NCBI GenBank assembly: GCA_043750125.1
Contig: JAYVCD010000361.1
Span: 1 to 12,713, forward strand
Source: Archangiaceae bacterium
GTDB lineage: Bacteria; Myxococcota; Myxococcia; Myxococcales; Myxococcaceae
DNA length: 12,713 nucleotides
Reading direction: 5' to 3'
Positions 1 to 7,527 of the stretch are shown here, piece after piece. Both the position numbers and the translations under genes were made by a program. The notes below the pieces were generated by a model. That model was not told the origin of the DNA. It made no database searches and saw nothing but the letters and a program-made list of their open reading frames with translations. Position 1 is the first letter of the stretch; the number at the start of each line of letters is the position of its first letter.

Positions 1-409
1 GACACGAGTCGTGAAGCATCGCGTCAAGTCGAGATCCAACTCGCATGATCCAAAGCGAAGACAATAGATAGAACTGGACACTTGGATTCGCGAGCAGCCG
101 AAACTCGGGTGGATGTCGGCCGACCCCCTTGTTTTTAAAATAGTCCCACTCCGCATCTGCTCCGGAGAACGCCAGTTCTGCACGGTGGACTAAGGCCATG
201 GGCTTCGGAATCGCAATGACCTTTCCCAAGGGATCCGATGCCCACTGAAAGTCCTTTCCGTCGAGGTCAGCCTTAAGTTGGCGAAGGCGTTTCCCTAGTC
301 CTGACTCGTATTCAAGAAACTTCAGTGCAGAGTTTGAAGTCTTTTCGTACCAAGCATCTGACTTTGCTCGTCGGTATGCGAACCACAATTCGTCATCGGT
401 TGTTTTCAA
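1..409 (-). CDS. 5' part (136 codons, runs off the window edge) of a probable defence-associated reverse transcriptase, UG1/DRT1-like (RT-nitrilase class)
   Basis: Hand translation from TTG at 409 is stop-free to the edge: MKTTDDELWFAYRRAKSDAWYEKTSNSALKFLEYESGLGKRLRQLKADLDGKDFQWASDPLGKVIAIPKPMALVHRAELAFSGADAEWDYFKNKGVGRHPPEFRLLANPSVQFYLLSSLWIMRVGSRLDAMLHDSC. The pattern AYRxAKxDxxYE...FxxYExxL...LG(x)5PK...FRL...SxxFxxLSxLWIxxVGxxLD resembles, from recall, the RT0-RT2 region of nitrilase-fused UG RTs. In-frame TAA at 428-430 bounds it upstream; G-rich RBS-like run 10-15 nt before the TTG. The catalytic YxDD motif is outside the window. Confidence 0.72.
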   Translation of the reverse strand, partial: MKTTDDELWFAYRRAKSDAWYEKTSNSALKFLEYESGLGKRLRQLKADLDGKDFQWASDPLGKVIAIPKPMALVHRAELAFSGADAEWDYFKNKGVGRHPPEFRLLANPSVQFYLLSSLWIMRVGSRLDAMLHDSC

Positions 410-449
410 GATTCGTCGGCCCCCAAATTACTCAAACCGTGAGCCGCTG

Positions 450-478
450 AGAATGAGCCCGAAATGAACGTGGGGCAA
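450..478 (-). promoter_or_regulatory. Candidate sigma70-type promoter for the RT-like gene
   Basis: On the minus strand: TTGCCC (478-473), 17 nt, CATTCT (455-450). Predicted transcription start near 443, about 35 nt before the TTG. Confidence 0.4.
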
Positions 479-519
479 CGAGAACGCACATTTCGAAGTC
501 CGCAGCTTGCCCGACTGGA

Positions 520-805
520 TTACGGATTCAGTGTGGTGGCAAGACTTCCCGCATCGACCTCGAAGATGCGACGGTCGTCGAAGTTCTCGCCGCCGTCCGC
601 GCTTTGAACCCGAACAAGCCCGCTCCGAAGAAGAACGCCGACGCCGCACTCATCACCAAGGCCCTCACTGCCTCGAAGCACGAAGGTCTCACCGTTCTCG
701 TCACGAGGTCCGGCATCACCTTCCGCGGACTGACCATCGAGAAGCTGCAATCGCTCGCGAACGTCCTGCTCCGCACCAAACTGCCCACAGCCGAACCGCA
801 CCTCC
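520..805 (+). pseudogene. 5'-truncated remnant of a host-type hypothetical protein (C-terminal part only)
   Basis: Frame +1 is open from 457 to 903 with no ATG/GTG or RBS. From about 520 it has GC3-rich codons and reads LRIQCGGKTSRIDLEDATVVEVLAAVRALNPNKPAPKKNADAALITKALTASKHEGLTVLVTRSGITFRGLTIEKLQSLANVLLRTKLP. It resembles, from recall, C-termini of a myxobacterial hypothetical family. Protein-like character is lost before about 520 and after about 805. Confidence 0.5.
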
Positions 806-823
806 GGCGGGTTGTTGATTGTA

Positions 824-861
824 GAAAACGGACTGCCGCCTGCCCCGGCCGGCGGCAGTCC
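824..861 (-). terminator. Intrinsic terminator of the tautomerase gene
   Basis: Perfect 11-bp inverted repeat GGACTGCCGCC (830-840) / GGCGGCAGTCC (851-861) with a 10-nt loop, followed on the minus strand by GTTTTC; begins 12 nt after the TAG at 874. Confidence 0.7.
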
Positions 862-873
862 CAGCACACTCGG

Positions 874-1074
874 CTAGCCCCGTTTTCTTTTCTCTGTCAC
901 TGAGATTCCGCCGACGCCCCAATTGTCGGTGTCGACCTCGTCGATGATCACGAAGGTGGTGGCCGGGTCTTTGTTCAGGACCCGTACCAGCAGATCCGTC
1001 ACCCCTTTGATCAGCTCGGCCTTCTGAGCGGGGCTCGCTCCGTCGCGGGTAATCCGGATGTTGACGTAGGGCAT
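874..1074 (-). CDS. 4-oxalocrotonate tautomerase family protein (66 aa)
   Basis: N-terminal catalytic Pro (MPYVNIRI), QKAELIKGVTDLL, V-I-I-D-E-V..NWGVGG signature; GAGGT RBS upstream. Confidence 0.95.
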   Translation of the reverse strand: MPYVNIRITRDGASPAQKAELIKGVTDLLVRVLNKDPATTFVIIDEVDTDNWGVGGISVTEKRKRG

Positions 1075-3856: not shown

Positions 3857-5653
3857 TCACAGGCAGCAGCGCAGGCCCAGGTACGCGGCGCCGCCCAGGC
3901 CGGGCAAGACGTAGTCCCGCGCATCGCAGCTGAGCTTCGAGTCGCTTTGACCAAATGAGCCACCGCGCGTCACCCGCTGCGGGGCTCCTTCTCGAAGCGG
4001 CGACGCAGTCCATTCGGCGACGTTGCCGACCAGGTCGAAGATTCCCGTCGGGCCCACGCACCCGCTCATTGAGCCAGAAGCGGCGGGCCCTTTTTCCTTC
4101 TCGCTTCCCCGGGTGAAGCAGCGTCCCTTGCCCAGGCTGTCGCCCCACGGGTAGCGCTGCTTTCCACACCCCATCTGCCACTCGGCCTCGGTGCACAGGT
4201 GCTTTCCGCTCTTGGTGCAGAGGGCGACGGCCTCGGCCCAATCGACCTTCGTCACCGGCACGGCTCCTTTTCGGTTGGGGTACTCGTACCGGTCGATGAA
4301 GACGTCGCCGACCCGCACCATTCCGTTGCGCTGAGCGAAGGCCAGGCGCCGGGCCAGCGAGGCGAGTGGATCATCGGGAGCGACCGGTGCCAGGCGAGCC
4401 GCGGCGGCGAGCAAGGCGAGGGCCTTTTCGGAGTCGCCGCGATCGACCCCCATCTGGGCCTCGTGCCGAAGGGTGGCCCCCACCTTTCCCCGCAGCGCCA
4501 CCCATTCGGGCCGCGCTGGAAAAGCACCCTCGGCGGACAGCAGCTTGTCGAGCGCGAGCAGGGGCGTCCTGGCATCGAGAGCCCGGGTGACCTGCTCAGC
4601 CGCGGCCGCGACGGCGCGGGCGACGGGGTCTGAGCCGACTCCGGCGGGCGCATTTTCCGGCGGAGGTCGAAGGAAAAAGGCAGCGAGCCCGAGGGCGCCG
4701 ACGAGGGCCGCTCCTGCAATCAGGGGCCACCTTCGAGGCTTCGGCTTCAAAGCATCGCGAAGCTCGACCAGCGTTGAGCGCACCTGGGGGGCCGAGGGTC
4801 GTTCTGCGGGATCCACCTGCATCAGCGCGAGGACCAGCGCGTCGAGCTTCTCGGGCACTTCCGACCGTTCTGCACGCACCCGCGGGCGCGCGAGGCCCTG
4901 GTGCATCCTCACCACCTGCTGCGGATCTGAATGGCGAAACGGGAGGTGGCCGGTGAGCAGCTCGAAGAACAGGCAACCCAGAGAATAGAGATCGGAATGG
5001 GGTCCGAGGTTTTGGTTCGCCGCCTGCTCGGGCGCCACGTAGTCCGGGGTCCCCATCGCGTGAGAGGACCGGGTGGTCACCTGCTGCGCGATGCCGAAAT
5101 CGAGCAGCTTGGGAAAAGAAGCGCGGTTGGGGTTGCGGACGATGAAGACGTTCGCCGACTTGATGTCGCGGTGAACGAAGCCCGCCGAATGCGCCGCCTC
5201 GAGCGCGCTGAGCAGCGGCAACACCAGCTCGATCGCCTCGAGAATTCCAAACTTATGACGGGCCATTACCGTCTCGAGCGGCTCGCCCTCGAGCAGTTCC
5301 ATCACCAGGTACGACCGGCCATCGGGCAGCGTGCCGAAGCCGTAGACATCGACGATGCCGACATCGCCAATCGCGTTGACTGCTTTGGCTTCGGCGAGCA
5401 GCGAAGGCAGGCGCGGATCATTGCTCAGGTGGGGGTGAACGATCTTCAGCGCCGCCCGCTTGCCGATGGTCGTCTCGATCGCGGCGTAGACGGCGCCCAT
5501 GCCTCCCAGGCCCAGGCGCTTGAGCACCTGGTAGCCGCCGATGATTGTCCCCAGCAGCGGGTCTTCACTGGCGAGCACCAGCTCTTCCATGTCGTTGGGG
5601 CAGACCACGCTGTTCGCCGGAGCCTGTTGTCCACAGCGGCGACAGACTTCCAA
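3857..5653 (-). CDS. Membrane Ser/Thr protein kinase with C-terminal FGE/SUMF1-like domain
   Basis: N-terminal CxxC..CPxD ribbon; GLGGMG, AALK, HRDIKSAN, DFG, GTPDYVAPE, DLYSLG; TM helix (WPLIAGAALVGALGLAAFFL); IDRYEYPN, LCTEAEW, YPWG, DLVGNVAEW, RGGSF, GLRCC typical of the FGE-sulfatase domain. The TTG start is uncertain. Confidence 0.93.
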   Translation of the reverse strand: MEVCRRCGQQAPANSVVCPNDMEELVLASEDPLLGTIIGGYQVLKRLGLGGMGAVYAAIETTIGKRAALKIVHPHLSNDPRLPSLLAEAKAVNAIGDVGIVDVYGFGTLPDGRSYLVMELLEGEPLETVMARHKFGILEAIELVLPLLSALEAAHSAGFVHRDIKSANVFIVRNPNRASFPKLLDFGIAQQVTTRSSHAMGTPDYVAPEQAANQNLGPHSDLYSLGCLFFELLTGHLPFRHSDPQQVVRMHQGLARPRVRAERSEVPEKLDALVLALMQVDPAERPSAPQVRSTLVELRDALKPKPRRWPLIAGAALVGALGLAAFFLRPPPENAPAGVGSDPVARAVAAAAEQVTRALDARTPLLALDKLLSAEGAFPARPEWVALRGKVGATLRHEAQMGVDRGDSEKALALLAAAARLAPVAPDDPLASLARRLAFAQRNGMVRVGDVFIDRYEYPNRKGAVPVTKVDWAEAVALCTKSGKHLCTEAEWQMGCGKQRYPWGDSLGKGRCFTRGSEKEKGPAASGSMSGCVGPTGIFDLVGNVAEWTASPLREGAPQRVTRGGSFGQSDSKLSCDARDYVLPGLGGAAYLGLRCCL

Positions 5654-5667
5654 ATCGAGGGTGGGGG

Positions 5668-6174
5668 TCAGCGGACGACCTCGATCGCGCCCGCCATTCC
5701 AGCGCCGGCCGGACTGCCATGGGCAAAGCAGTAGTAGCCAAAAATGCCGAGCCCGCGATTAAAGGTCAGCGTGAAGCTCTGCCCCGATGACGCCACCAGG
5801 ACCCCGGCCACCGGACCACACGACTGGCTCAGGGGGTGGACGCCAAAATCGCCGCCCTGAAACGTGACGGTCTGACCGAAACGAATGCGAATGCAGTTGG
5901 GCGCGTAGCGCTCGGTCGCTCCGAATCGAATCACCCGTACGGAAGCGGGGTCGGTGAGATCGACGAAGGTCGCGCAGCCGGCGAAAGCGGGGGCGCAGAC
6001 CGAAGCGGGCGCGACGCAGGCGGTCGCTTCACAGACTCCGCTCGCACACTCGAGCGCCGAGCTGCACCCCCCGTCGACTTCCGGGACGATCTGCCCCGAG
6101 TCGACCCACGGGCCGACGGTGGGCAGGCAAGCACAGGCGAAGAACGCGAGGGAAATGCAGCACAGACGAGTCAC
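5668..6174 (-). CDS. Lipoprotein with Cys-rich segment and plastocyanin/azurin-like cupredoxin domain
   Basis: Lipobox-like [17 protein letters not shown] segment; type-1 Cu ligand set His (GVHPL) plus Cys-x2-His-x7-Met ([14 protein letters not shown]). Stop is 14 nt before the kinase start. Confidence 0.85.
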
Positions 6175-6198
6175 GGGAGGACGCCTACTATGGCGCGA

Positions 6199-7527
6199 AT
6201 GGGCACGACTTTGCGATTGAGCACTTCGGGGGGCCTGGTCCGAATCGACCGGACCACCGGAACGCTGCGCTCGCGGGAATACTATTTGAGCGTGCTCTCA
6301 GGGCCCGACGCGGGGAGCTCGGCGGCGATCGACGGCCCGATGGTGGTCGGCACCGCTCTGACCGCGGGCCTGGTGTTGACCGACGGGGCGGTCTCGGCCG
6401 CCCACCTCGAGTTGTTCCCCAGGCCCGACGGAGTCCGGGTGCGCGATCTGGGCTCGACCAACGGGACGTTCATCGGGGGCGCGCGAATCGCCGAAGCGCT
6501 GCTCGAGGAAGAATCGACTTTGAAGATCGGCCAGACGCTGCTGCGCATCGCGATCATCGACGAGAGCATCGGCGTTCCCGACGGGCCGGCCAATTTAGGC
6601 GGAGCGATCGGCAGCAGTCGCCCGATGCGGCGGCTGTTCGGAATGATTTCGAAGGTCGCCCCCAGCAATTCCCCGGTGGTGTTGTTGGGTGAGACCGGCA
6701 CCGGAAAAGAGGTGCTGGCCCGGGCGATTCACCAGCTCTCGTCGCGCAGCGCAGGGCCGTTTGTCGTCTTCGACTGCGCGGCGGTCACGCCCAACCTGAT
6801 CGAAAGTGAGCTCTTCGGGCACGTGAAAGGGGCGTTTACCGGCGCCCAGACCGACCGCAAAGGCGCCTTTGTAGAAGCCCGAAACGGCACCCTGTTCCTC
6901 GACGAGCTGGGCGAGCTGTCGCTGGACCTTCAGCCCAAGCTGCTGCGGGCGCTGGAAGAGGGAATGGTGAAGCCGGTCGGCAGCGAGGGGTACCAACCGG
7001 TCGATGTCCGGGTGATCGCCGCGACCCACCGCGACCTCGAATCCGAAGTCAAAACGGGAGCGTTTCGGGCCGACCTGTTTTTCCGGCTGTGCGTGGTGCC
7101 GCTGCTGGTTCCTCCCCTGCGCGACCGGTTGACCGACGTCCCCGAGCTCGCGCGGCACTTCGTGCGCCAGCTGGGCGCGCCCGACGTAGAGCTTCCCGCT
7201 TCGCTGCTGCACAAGCTGTGTGCCTATGACTGGCCGGGCAACGTGCGAGAGCTGCGCAACGTCGTCGCCCGCGCGCTGATCGACGAGGCGATCGCGCTCG
7301 AGCCCCACCGGCAGCAGCGCGCCCGGCCGCCGGCGGACAGCGCGGTCTTGGTCGACCTTCCGTTCAAGGCGGCGAAAGAGCGGCTGGTCGACAGCTTCAC
7401 CCGGGACTACCTCGAGGCGATGTTGGCGCGGCACGGGGGGAACATCACCCACGCGGCCAAGGCAGCAGGCATTGCCCGGGCGCACCTCCACAAGCTGGTC
7501 GAGAAGTACGGGCTGAAGGCCACCTGA
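6199..7527 (+). CDS. FHA-domain sigma54-dependent enhancer-binding protein
   Basis: FHA ([13 protein letters not shown]), Walker [40 protein letters not shown], Fis-type HTH ([17 protein letters not shown]). Start set at ATG 6199 (ATG 6190 possible), not 5836. Confidence 0.95.

Follow-up and report, generated by a model that had tools for sequence, protein, structure and literature searches.

The window, 12,713 nucleotides in length, is an entire contig (G000:C361:1-12713) of a 6.17 Mb assembly that comprises 460 contigs, is 89% complete and has a GC-content of 64.9%. The preliminary description of the window, made from its letters, had suggested a myxobacterium-like host, and the genome does look like one of Myxococcota, which is taken as a lead only. 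The left edge of the contig carries the beginning of a reverse transcriptase (RT) gene, which continues beyond position 1. The features of this end of the window, together with the other copies of one of them in the assembly, are as follows:

2..409, minus strand: first 136 codons of a putative UG5-large reverse transcriptase-nitrilase gene (open reading frame, translation, PADLOC profile, GC3).
410..526, minus strand: RT gene leader with the presumed promoter, forming the right end of the low-GC island (GC 0.50-0.55 per 100-base window).
527, no strand: right border of the island (strain contigs diverge; likeness to host paralogues begins).
527..828, plus strand: 5'-truncated remnant of a multi-copy host gene of ~225-235 aa, C-terminal ~100 aa (translation, paralogues).
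C452:129-806, C251:2329-3009, C44:9198-9869, C53:160-915, C255:2682-3389, C163:9039-9542 and C257:6829-7521, other contigs of the assembly: further loci of the multi-copy gene, the copy in the window being 527-903, plus strand.

The RT frame is stop-free over 136 codons on the minus strand (2-409), starts with TTG at position 409 and leaves the contig at position 1, as the preliminary description had recognised. With default settings, the ORF listing omits frames of this kind that run off the source. With the upstream codons included, 142 codons are open, and TTG 409 is the earliest possible start because a TAA stands six codons 5' of it. The gene callers of other assemblies set later starts, at TTG 388 in protein P0004 and at ATG 199 in protein P0002. 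The N-terminus of the fragment can be aligned residue for residue with the start of P0003, a relative of 944 aa, and M plus six residues precede LWFAYRRAK in both P0003 and the window frame. The low GC-content and the A/T-ending codons remarked on earlier are borne out by counting. GC is 0.520 in positions 1-400 and 0.512 in 2-409, against 0.649 for the genome, and ranges from 0.59 to 0.715 in the 400-base windows from position 401 on. The GC3 of the 136-codon frame is 0.537, compared with 0.791, 0.825, 0.798, 0.807 and 0.818 for five neighbouring genes.

The translation of the fragment contains FAYRRAKSDAWYE, LGKVIAIPKP and FRLLANPSVQFYLLSSLWIMRVG. These motifs, which the preliminary description had quoted, coincide with the most conserved N-terminal columns of an alignment of 28 family proteins, where AYRxAK..YE, G....PK and FR....S....LS.LWI..VG represent the strongest N-terminal conservation and A4, Y5, K9, L112, W113 and G118 (P0004 numbering) are invariant. 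The PADLOC model RT_UG5-nitrilase matches residues 4-136 of the fragment to profile positions 22-140 of 907 with an E-value of 9e-25; the sole other PADLOC match is RT_UG5_small (E = 9.8e-4). Neither Pfam nor NCBIfam gave a match for the 136-aa fragment by itself. The likeness of the motifs goes beyond chance, since the PADLOC E-value of 9e-25 was obtained for the fragment alone.

The course of the DNA past window position 1 is deduced from protein records, contig coordinates and repeats at contig ends. Two proteins continue the fragment. P0002 (554 aa, from a 21,166-base contig) starts at an internal Met and agrees with the window in all 66 residues of the overlap (100% identity); P0004 (617 aa, from a 2108-base contig) is 99.2% identical over 129 residues, the single difference being the start codon read as M. 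The 2108-base contig, found in runs X1 and X2, reproduces window positions 1-633 without a difference and then runs 1475 bases beyond position 1. The depth in both runs is only about 7, and X1 and X2 may be the source of the assembly under study, so they are not independent of it. By P0002, P0004 and the 2108-base contig, the frame extends for 482 codons past the edge and does not close shortly beyond it; an early closure would have spoken against the RT reading. The YxDD motif and the RT profile that the preliminary description expected further along are both present: RVT_1 matches the continuation with 31.1 bits (cut-off 29.6), and R269-Y270-V271-D272-D273 of P0004 is invariant in 28 sequences. 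The alignment of P0004 with P0003 (47% identity) extends as far as residue 606 of the 944 in P0003.

Codon 136 of the RT gene is where the contig of the metagenome-assembled genome (MAG) starts, and the remaining codons are absent from the assembly: a family search, a search for overlaps of the contig head and tblastn with P0002, P0003 and P0004 all returned the window only. Another RT is encoded at the end of contig C167 (12146-13360, minus strand); it is a 404-aa reverse transcriptase/maturase of group II intron type with a YADD motif. As a candidate for the missing part it was rejected, being of group II intron type and unrelated to the UG5 gene. Contigs identical to the window end 43 bases left of position 1 in runs X3 and X4, while those of X1 and X2 continue, which points to a difference between strains within this part of the RT gene. 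When JGI metagenome contigs were scanned with P0004, none of the 115 pattern matches was a relative. A word-indexed search of 5.8 billion clusters yielded two matches among 554 candidates, and the only near-identical cluster has two members, of 554 and 617 aa; no protein with the same N-terminus and a longer body was found there.

In order to place the gene among the known defence RTs, profile scores were compared. RT_UG5-nitrilase matches P0002 with E = 6e-78 and P0004 with E = 1.3e-92, it covers residues 2-941 of P0003 with E = 1.6e-188, and all 28 aligned relatives match it. For P0004 the bit scores are 309.7 with RT_UG5-nitrilase, 87.1 with UG5_small and 63.9 with Drt3a, and no non-UG5 RT model exceeds 64 bits on the continuation. 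The Drt1a model has no match in P0004 at E ≤ 1e-10, and in P0003 it matches the nitrilase region only (704-905; 85.7 bits versus 627.1 bits for UG5-nitrilase). Judged from profile scores, the gene is a UG5-large member of class 3 of the UG/Abi RTs and not DRT1/UG1. The preliminary description had read the frame as a UG1/DRT1-like defence RT; its placement in the nitrilase-linked UG/Abi class is upheld by PADLOC, which it had named as a check, and only the family has to be changed. The DRT1/UG1 identity was rejected on the lack of a Drt1a match over the RT part and on size, UG1 proteins having 1200-1300 aa (PMC9226505) and the relatives of the window gene 944 aa. UG5-small was rejected as well, on the difference between 87.1 and 309.7 bits and on the coincidence of the RT/nitrilase separation with the terminus of an insertion sequence (IS), described below.

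A reading of the frame as an RT of some other kind (group II intron, retron, DGR or DRT1), or as a low-GC non-coding stretch open by chance, is in keeping with the silence of Pfam and NCBIfam on the fragment and with the group II intron RT encoded on C167. The latter, however, is a different protein, Rfam found no family in the window, the fragment has PADLOC matches to the two UG5 models only, and the continuation scores 309.7 bits on UG5-nitrilase against at most 64 on any non-UG5 RT model. We regard this reading as refuted by the PADLOC results for the fragment and its continuations, and its residual probability is negligible.

A HMMER search with the 617-aa continuation against 1.84 billion representatives found 1327 proteins at E ≤ 1e-3, 612 at E ≤ 1e-10 and 166 at E ≤ 1e-30, most of them about 1000 aa long. 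The closest relatives are P0003 (48% identity) and P0022 (37%), each of 944 aa; the remaining best 150 matches do not exceed 35%. P0003 is an ordinary RT-linker-nitrilase fusion. The preliminary description had held out the prospect of a new architecture, and this expectation finds no support: the nearest full-length relatives show the canonical RT-nitrilase fusion. Among contigs of a collection with one genome per species, 559 of 601 pattern-matched stretches encode relatives, and the best 80 of these 559 are 21-32% identical and come from many phyla. P0004 is 26% identical over 85% of its length (E = 9e-35) to the product of a Sinorhizobium meliloti pSymA gene (NZ_CP009145.1, 109368-111053), which is the UG5-large system DRT11 according to PMC13436386.

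Within 41 related genomes, the RT was matched in three, including the one under study, and in none of the four of the same genus, the completeness of which ranges from 78% to 97%. In genome G008, the homologue (926 aa) has a response regulator gene on one side and a histidine phosphatase gene on the other, and no gene for a transmembrane (TM) partner next to it. Genome G027, of the same order, has a UG5-large homologue in two open frames of 215 and 812 aa (C162:30538-33485, minus strand), which is either a frameshifted or a split copy. In a phage collection, the RT core alone found matches (seven records, 16-17% of the query), and no phage vehicle was identified there.

The lineage is divergent: none of the other proteins found exceeds 48% identity. 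The supplementary tables of PMC9226505, PMC13275509 and PMC13436386 may already list relatives of it. The architecture, distribution, anti-phage activity and likely mechanism of UG5-large have already been published.

The continuation does not reach the nitrilase. P0002 and P0004 share the ending ...QLARRIARVGLSC, which makes them about 340 residues shorter than P0003; their C-terminus reads ...ARRIARVGLSC, and the likeness to P0003 stops seven residues before their end. In the 2108-base contig, TTG 409 corresponds to position 225 and the start of P0004 to 246, so that its 617 codons end at 2096 with 12 bases left. A stop must stand 9 bases before the contig end, because a fully open frame would give 621 codons and not 617. 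The six residues RVGLSC followed by a stop occur once in the six-frame translation of the assembly, on contig C11, at the first bases of a repeat. A chance origin of this match was rejected: a rough calculation predicts about 0.01 such matches per genome, and the one observed falls precisely on a repeat terminus at the end of a contig.

The same terminus was found 96-99 bases from the ends of six contigs (C11_L, C94_L, C111_R, C207_R, C231_R and C258_R), and an inverted partner terminus, with 18-20 of 22 bases matched, lies 95-99 bases from four others (C22_R, C137_R, C159_L and C345_R). The copy on C11 has a one-base variant that gives the Cys; the remaining five copies would give Ser. The match of the RT gene to this terminus is one at the protein level, of six residues plus a stop. 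The contig of X1 and X2 enters the repeat by 29 bases, or by 30 when the shared C in front of it is included. Taking k = 31 for the Logan assembly, as we presume, this is the length expected for a 31-mer graph at a junction of unique and repeated DNA.

The interior of the repeat is absent from the assembly, and its family was deduced from an element of genome G066, which belongs to another genus; the terminal 96 bases of the two show 72% identity. The single G066 copy examined first gave no Pfam match in nine ORFs and no inverted repeat within 1.7 kb. Comparison of three copies defined a related element of 1524 bp with 24-base inverted ends of 83% complementarity. Its 472-aa ORF is matched by NF033572 (ISKra4 family transposase) with E = 1.7e-58 and 198.7 bits (cut-off 205) and has no match in Pfam. 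The insertion sequence, probably ISKra4-like, interrupts the assembly at 10 or more contig ends. Other repeat families are found at contig ends as well, the largest cluster joining 27 ends. By the shared tail and the position of the repeat, native codon 618 of the RT gene is very probably followed by an ISKra4-like insertion sequence. The predicted insertion site separates the helical middle part from the nitrilase domain, and the RT ORF on record ends at codon 624 in IS-derived sequence, before the nitrilase. The C-terminal nitrilase that the preliminary description had proposed looking for is present in the relative P0003, while the continuation itself stops short of it.

A search among shorter proteins with P0003 residues 620-944 produced 15 matches. 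The best is P0005, a protein of 297 aa from a 3734-base contig of the same source types as P0004, with 59% identity over 87% of the query. It aligns to P0003 651-934 and retains E66, K127 and C169, which do not vary among 16 sequences. The initial M of P0005 falls about 40 residues past the break point, where a gene caller would set a start beyond an insertion. It is plausible, and somewhat more likely than not, that this candidate belongs to the interrupted RT gene.

It is also conceivable that the gene is an intact, working UG5-large RT-nitrilase of ~950 aa, and that its end at codon 624 is an effect of assembly, that is, of a minority allele carrying the IS or of a graph artefact. The close full-length relatives are all about 944 aa in size, P0005 combines the source types of P0004 with 59% identity to the nitrilase of P0003 and an intact E66/K127/C169, and the depth in X1 and X2 is only about 7. 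Yet two contigs that differ in length and stem from separate assembly collections share the IS-encoded tail. The X1/X2 contig, moreover, runs 29-30 bases into the repeat, whereas with a co-assembled uninterrupted allele at similar depth it would stop at the junction, and the search of 5.8 billion clusters held no longer-bodied protein with this N-terminus. We consider an intact gene unlikely. The interruption by the IS is the reading followed below.

The DNA to the right of the RT start is low in GC up to about position 527. There, the contigs of different strains diverge: X3 and X4 each have one contig that follows the window from 527 to 819 (or 527 to 782) with seven differences and whose 181 bases before 527 are unlike the window. 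A stretch of 30 bases before 527 in these contigs has 70% GC and extends the plus-strand reading frame, G or C occupying 8 of its 10 third positions. Contigs identical to the window, covering 1-570 and 1-562, are found in X3 and X4 too.

In the plus-strand frame 457-903, TTG 604 is the first start codon. Seven other loci of the assembly resemble this frame with 41-49% amino acid identity, and the matches begin at its residues 13-24 (22-24 in six of the seven), i.e., at about window 523-529. The other paralogues have 223-251 aa by ORF call and a GC3 of about 0.8, start with MPESTEG... and end with ...LRRVA*; the copy in the window, with a GC3 of 0.69, has lost ~125 N-terminal residues and the stop of the other copies. 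The 457-903 query found nothing in 60 further genomes of the same taxonomic family, and the gene family has no match in Pfam or NCBIfam. Its look-alikes in the Atlas are hypothetical proteins of Myxococcota, with a weak structural likeness to ParB-HTH/DUF3102 that serves as a lead only. Three of the eight copies adjoin defence-like genes, namely the RT in the window, a PLD-ResIII-helicase-DUF3427 gene on C255 and SMC_N/AAA_21 plus DUF488 on C251; the remaining loci adjoin ordinary genes.

GC and GC3, the divergence in X3 and X4 and the start of the paralogue likeness together indicate that the foreign island ends at about 527 and truncated a host member of the multi-copy family. By its composition and sporadic occurrence, the RT gene is taken to be horizontally acquired, on a small compositionally foreign island, in agreement with what was first proposed: GC3 is foreign, and the gene occurs in 3 of 41 genomes and 0 of 4 of the same genus. 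An empty site could not be defined by synteny in the four same-genus genomes, the neighbours being different; they gave short matches to an ADH gene (G001), a tautomerase gene (G003) and one piece (G002). ARAGORN detected no tRNA that could mark an integration site.

On the host side of the island, a 66-aa gene of the 4-oxalocrotonate tautomerase family lies at 874-1074 on the minus strand (Pfam Tautomerase, E = 1e-20), with 79% DNA identity to a same-genus genome. It is followed by a GC-rich hairpin (830-861, minus strand) and GTTTTCT, likely the terminator of the tautomerase gene, which the simple terminator scan overlooked. Further into the window are a Ser/Thr kinase fused to an FGE-sulfatase domain (3857-5653, minus strand) and an FHA-domain sigma-54 activator (5836-7527, plus strand), both regulators in typical Myxococcota style.

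Since 117 bases separate the RT start from the island border, there is no room for an upstream partner gene. Simple scans of positions 1-1300 returned no sigma-70-like promoter and no terminator sites, and the 117-base leader folds no better than shuffled sequences (z = 0.17). A template RNA was not seen by Rfam or in the leader fold, which is a weak negative.

The window gene shares with DRT11 of S. meliloti RMO17 (WP_040120558.1, PMC13436386) the profile family, the AYRxAK motif and YVDD. The RT-nitrilase plus TM system of E. coli E101, cited in PMC9226505, is UG5-large too. That paper gives the definitions of UG5-large and UG5-small and reports a TM partner (clusters 85/1858) in 31 of 299 UG5-large members. 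Like DRT11 and the G008 relative, the window gene is without an upstream partner gene; it differs from UG5-large as described in being interrupted by an IS before the nitrilase and in residing in a Myxococcota-like MAG. DRT1 likewise belongs to class 3 and combines an RT with a C-N hydrolase effector (PMC13275509), but its priming serine, S402, is reported in the same paper not to be conserved in other class 3 DRTs. In UG5-small and UG6, RT and nitrilase are located on separate polypeptides; the state here is the same, reached secondarily via the IS, so that the boundary is a mobile element and not a native gene boundary.

Protection against phages through the active sites of RT and nitrilase has been reported for DRT11 and DRT1 (PMC13436386; PMC13275509). 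DRT11 protects at low multiplicity of infection and is described in PMC13436386 as having no transmembrane partner and no ncRNA in RNA-seq. For DRT1, PMC13275509 describes DNA adducts by which tetramers and dormant filaments are assembled, with the nitrilase kept in a closed state. Activation needs a phage helicase and ends in abortive infection, and mutants in the active site of either the RT or the nitrilase give no protection (PMC13275509). Template-free synthesis of covalently attached DNA is reported there for the class 3 systems 'DRT5S' and 'DRT5L' also, which we take to be UG5-small and UG5-large.

By analogy with DRT1 and DRT11, the RT of an intact member would make template-independent, protein-primed DNA that is covalently retained; the attached DNA would assemble and restrain the nitrilase oligomer, and phage infection would free the nitrilase and lead to abortive infection. 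The intact ancestor of the window gene, of about 955 aa by summation, would be expected to act in this manner. As it presumably exists in the source population, the horizontally acquired UG5-large RT-nitrilase anti-phage gene would begin at window 409 on the minus strand and read 618 native codons, encoding an N-terminal family-specific region, an RT palm with YVDD and a helical middle part. The ISKra4-like element would then add six residues and a stop and separate the nitrilase effector domain from the RT. The copy would be a defence gene in decay, located on a small island of foreign DNA which also truncated a host gene near 527. Since both active sites are needed in DRT1 and DRT11, the copy is most likely inactive. 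Given the interruption, its loss of function is somewhat more likely than not; a nitrilase encoded by a separate gene works in UG5-small and UG6 (PMC13436386), so that a split copy need not be dead. Overall, we assign a probability of about 0.8 to the reading that the window carries the start of an acquired UG5-large gene which is interrupted by an IS and most likely inactive.

The insertion might alternatively have split the fusion into two cooperating genes, a 624-aa RT part and a separate nitrilase, perhaps driven from the IS end. Nitrilases in separate ORFs occur naturally (UG5-small cluster 249 and UG6 cluster 285; PMC13436386; PMC9226505), and P0005 starts with M about 40 residues past the break and keeps its catalytic triad. 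In DRT1, however, the C-terminal regions of a single chain are interlocked, and the nitrilase tetramer is organised by the DNA adduct that the RT makes (PMC13275509), an arrangement that a random IS cut is unlikely to keep. P0005 is, furthermore, a candidate part only with regard to expression and linkage, and P0004 scores 309.7 bits on the fused-type profile against 87.1 on UG5_small. Two cooperating genes are a very unlikely explanation, and it is just as improbable that the fused RT-nitrilase was converted by the IS into a two-gene system with its defence function preserved. If true, it would represent an origin, caught in the act, of a UG5-small/UG6-like split from the fused form, in a deeply divergent Myxococcota-associated UG5 lineage.

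With the interrupted gene as the preferred reading, the finding opens no new question on how RT-nitrilase systems work. It adds a divergent member (≤48% identity), found in a Myxococcota-like environmental genome, to a defence family with an activity and a mechanism described in 2022-2026. The locus illustrates how defence genes come on small, compositionally foreign islands and are lost again via IS insertion, and how the binning of MAGs drops such regions, with only a 136-codon stub remaining at the contig edge.
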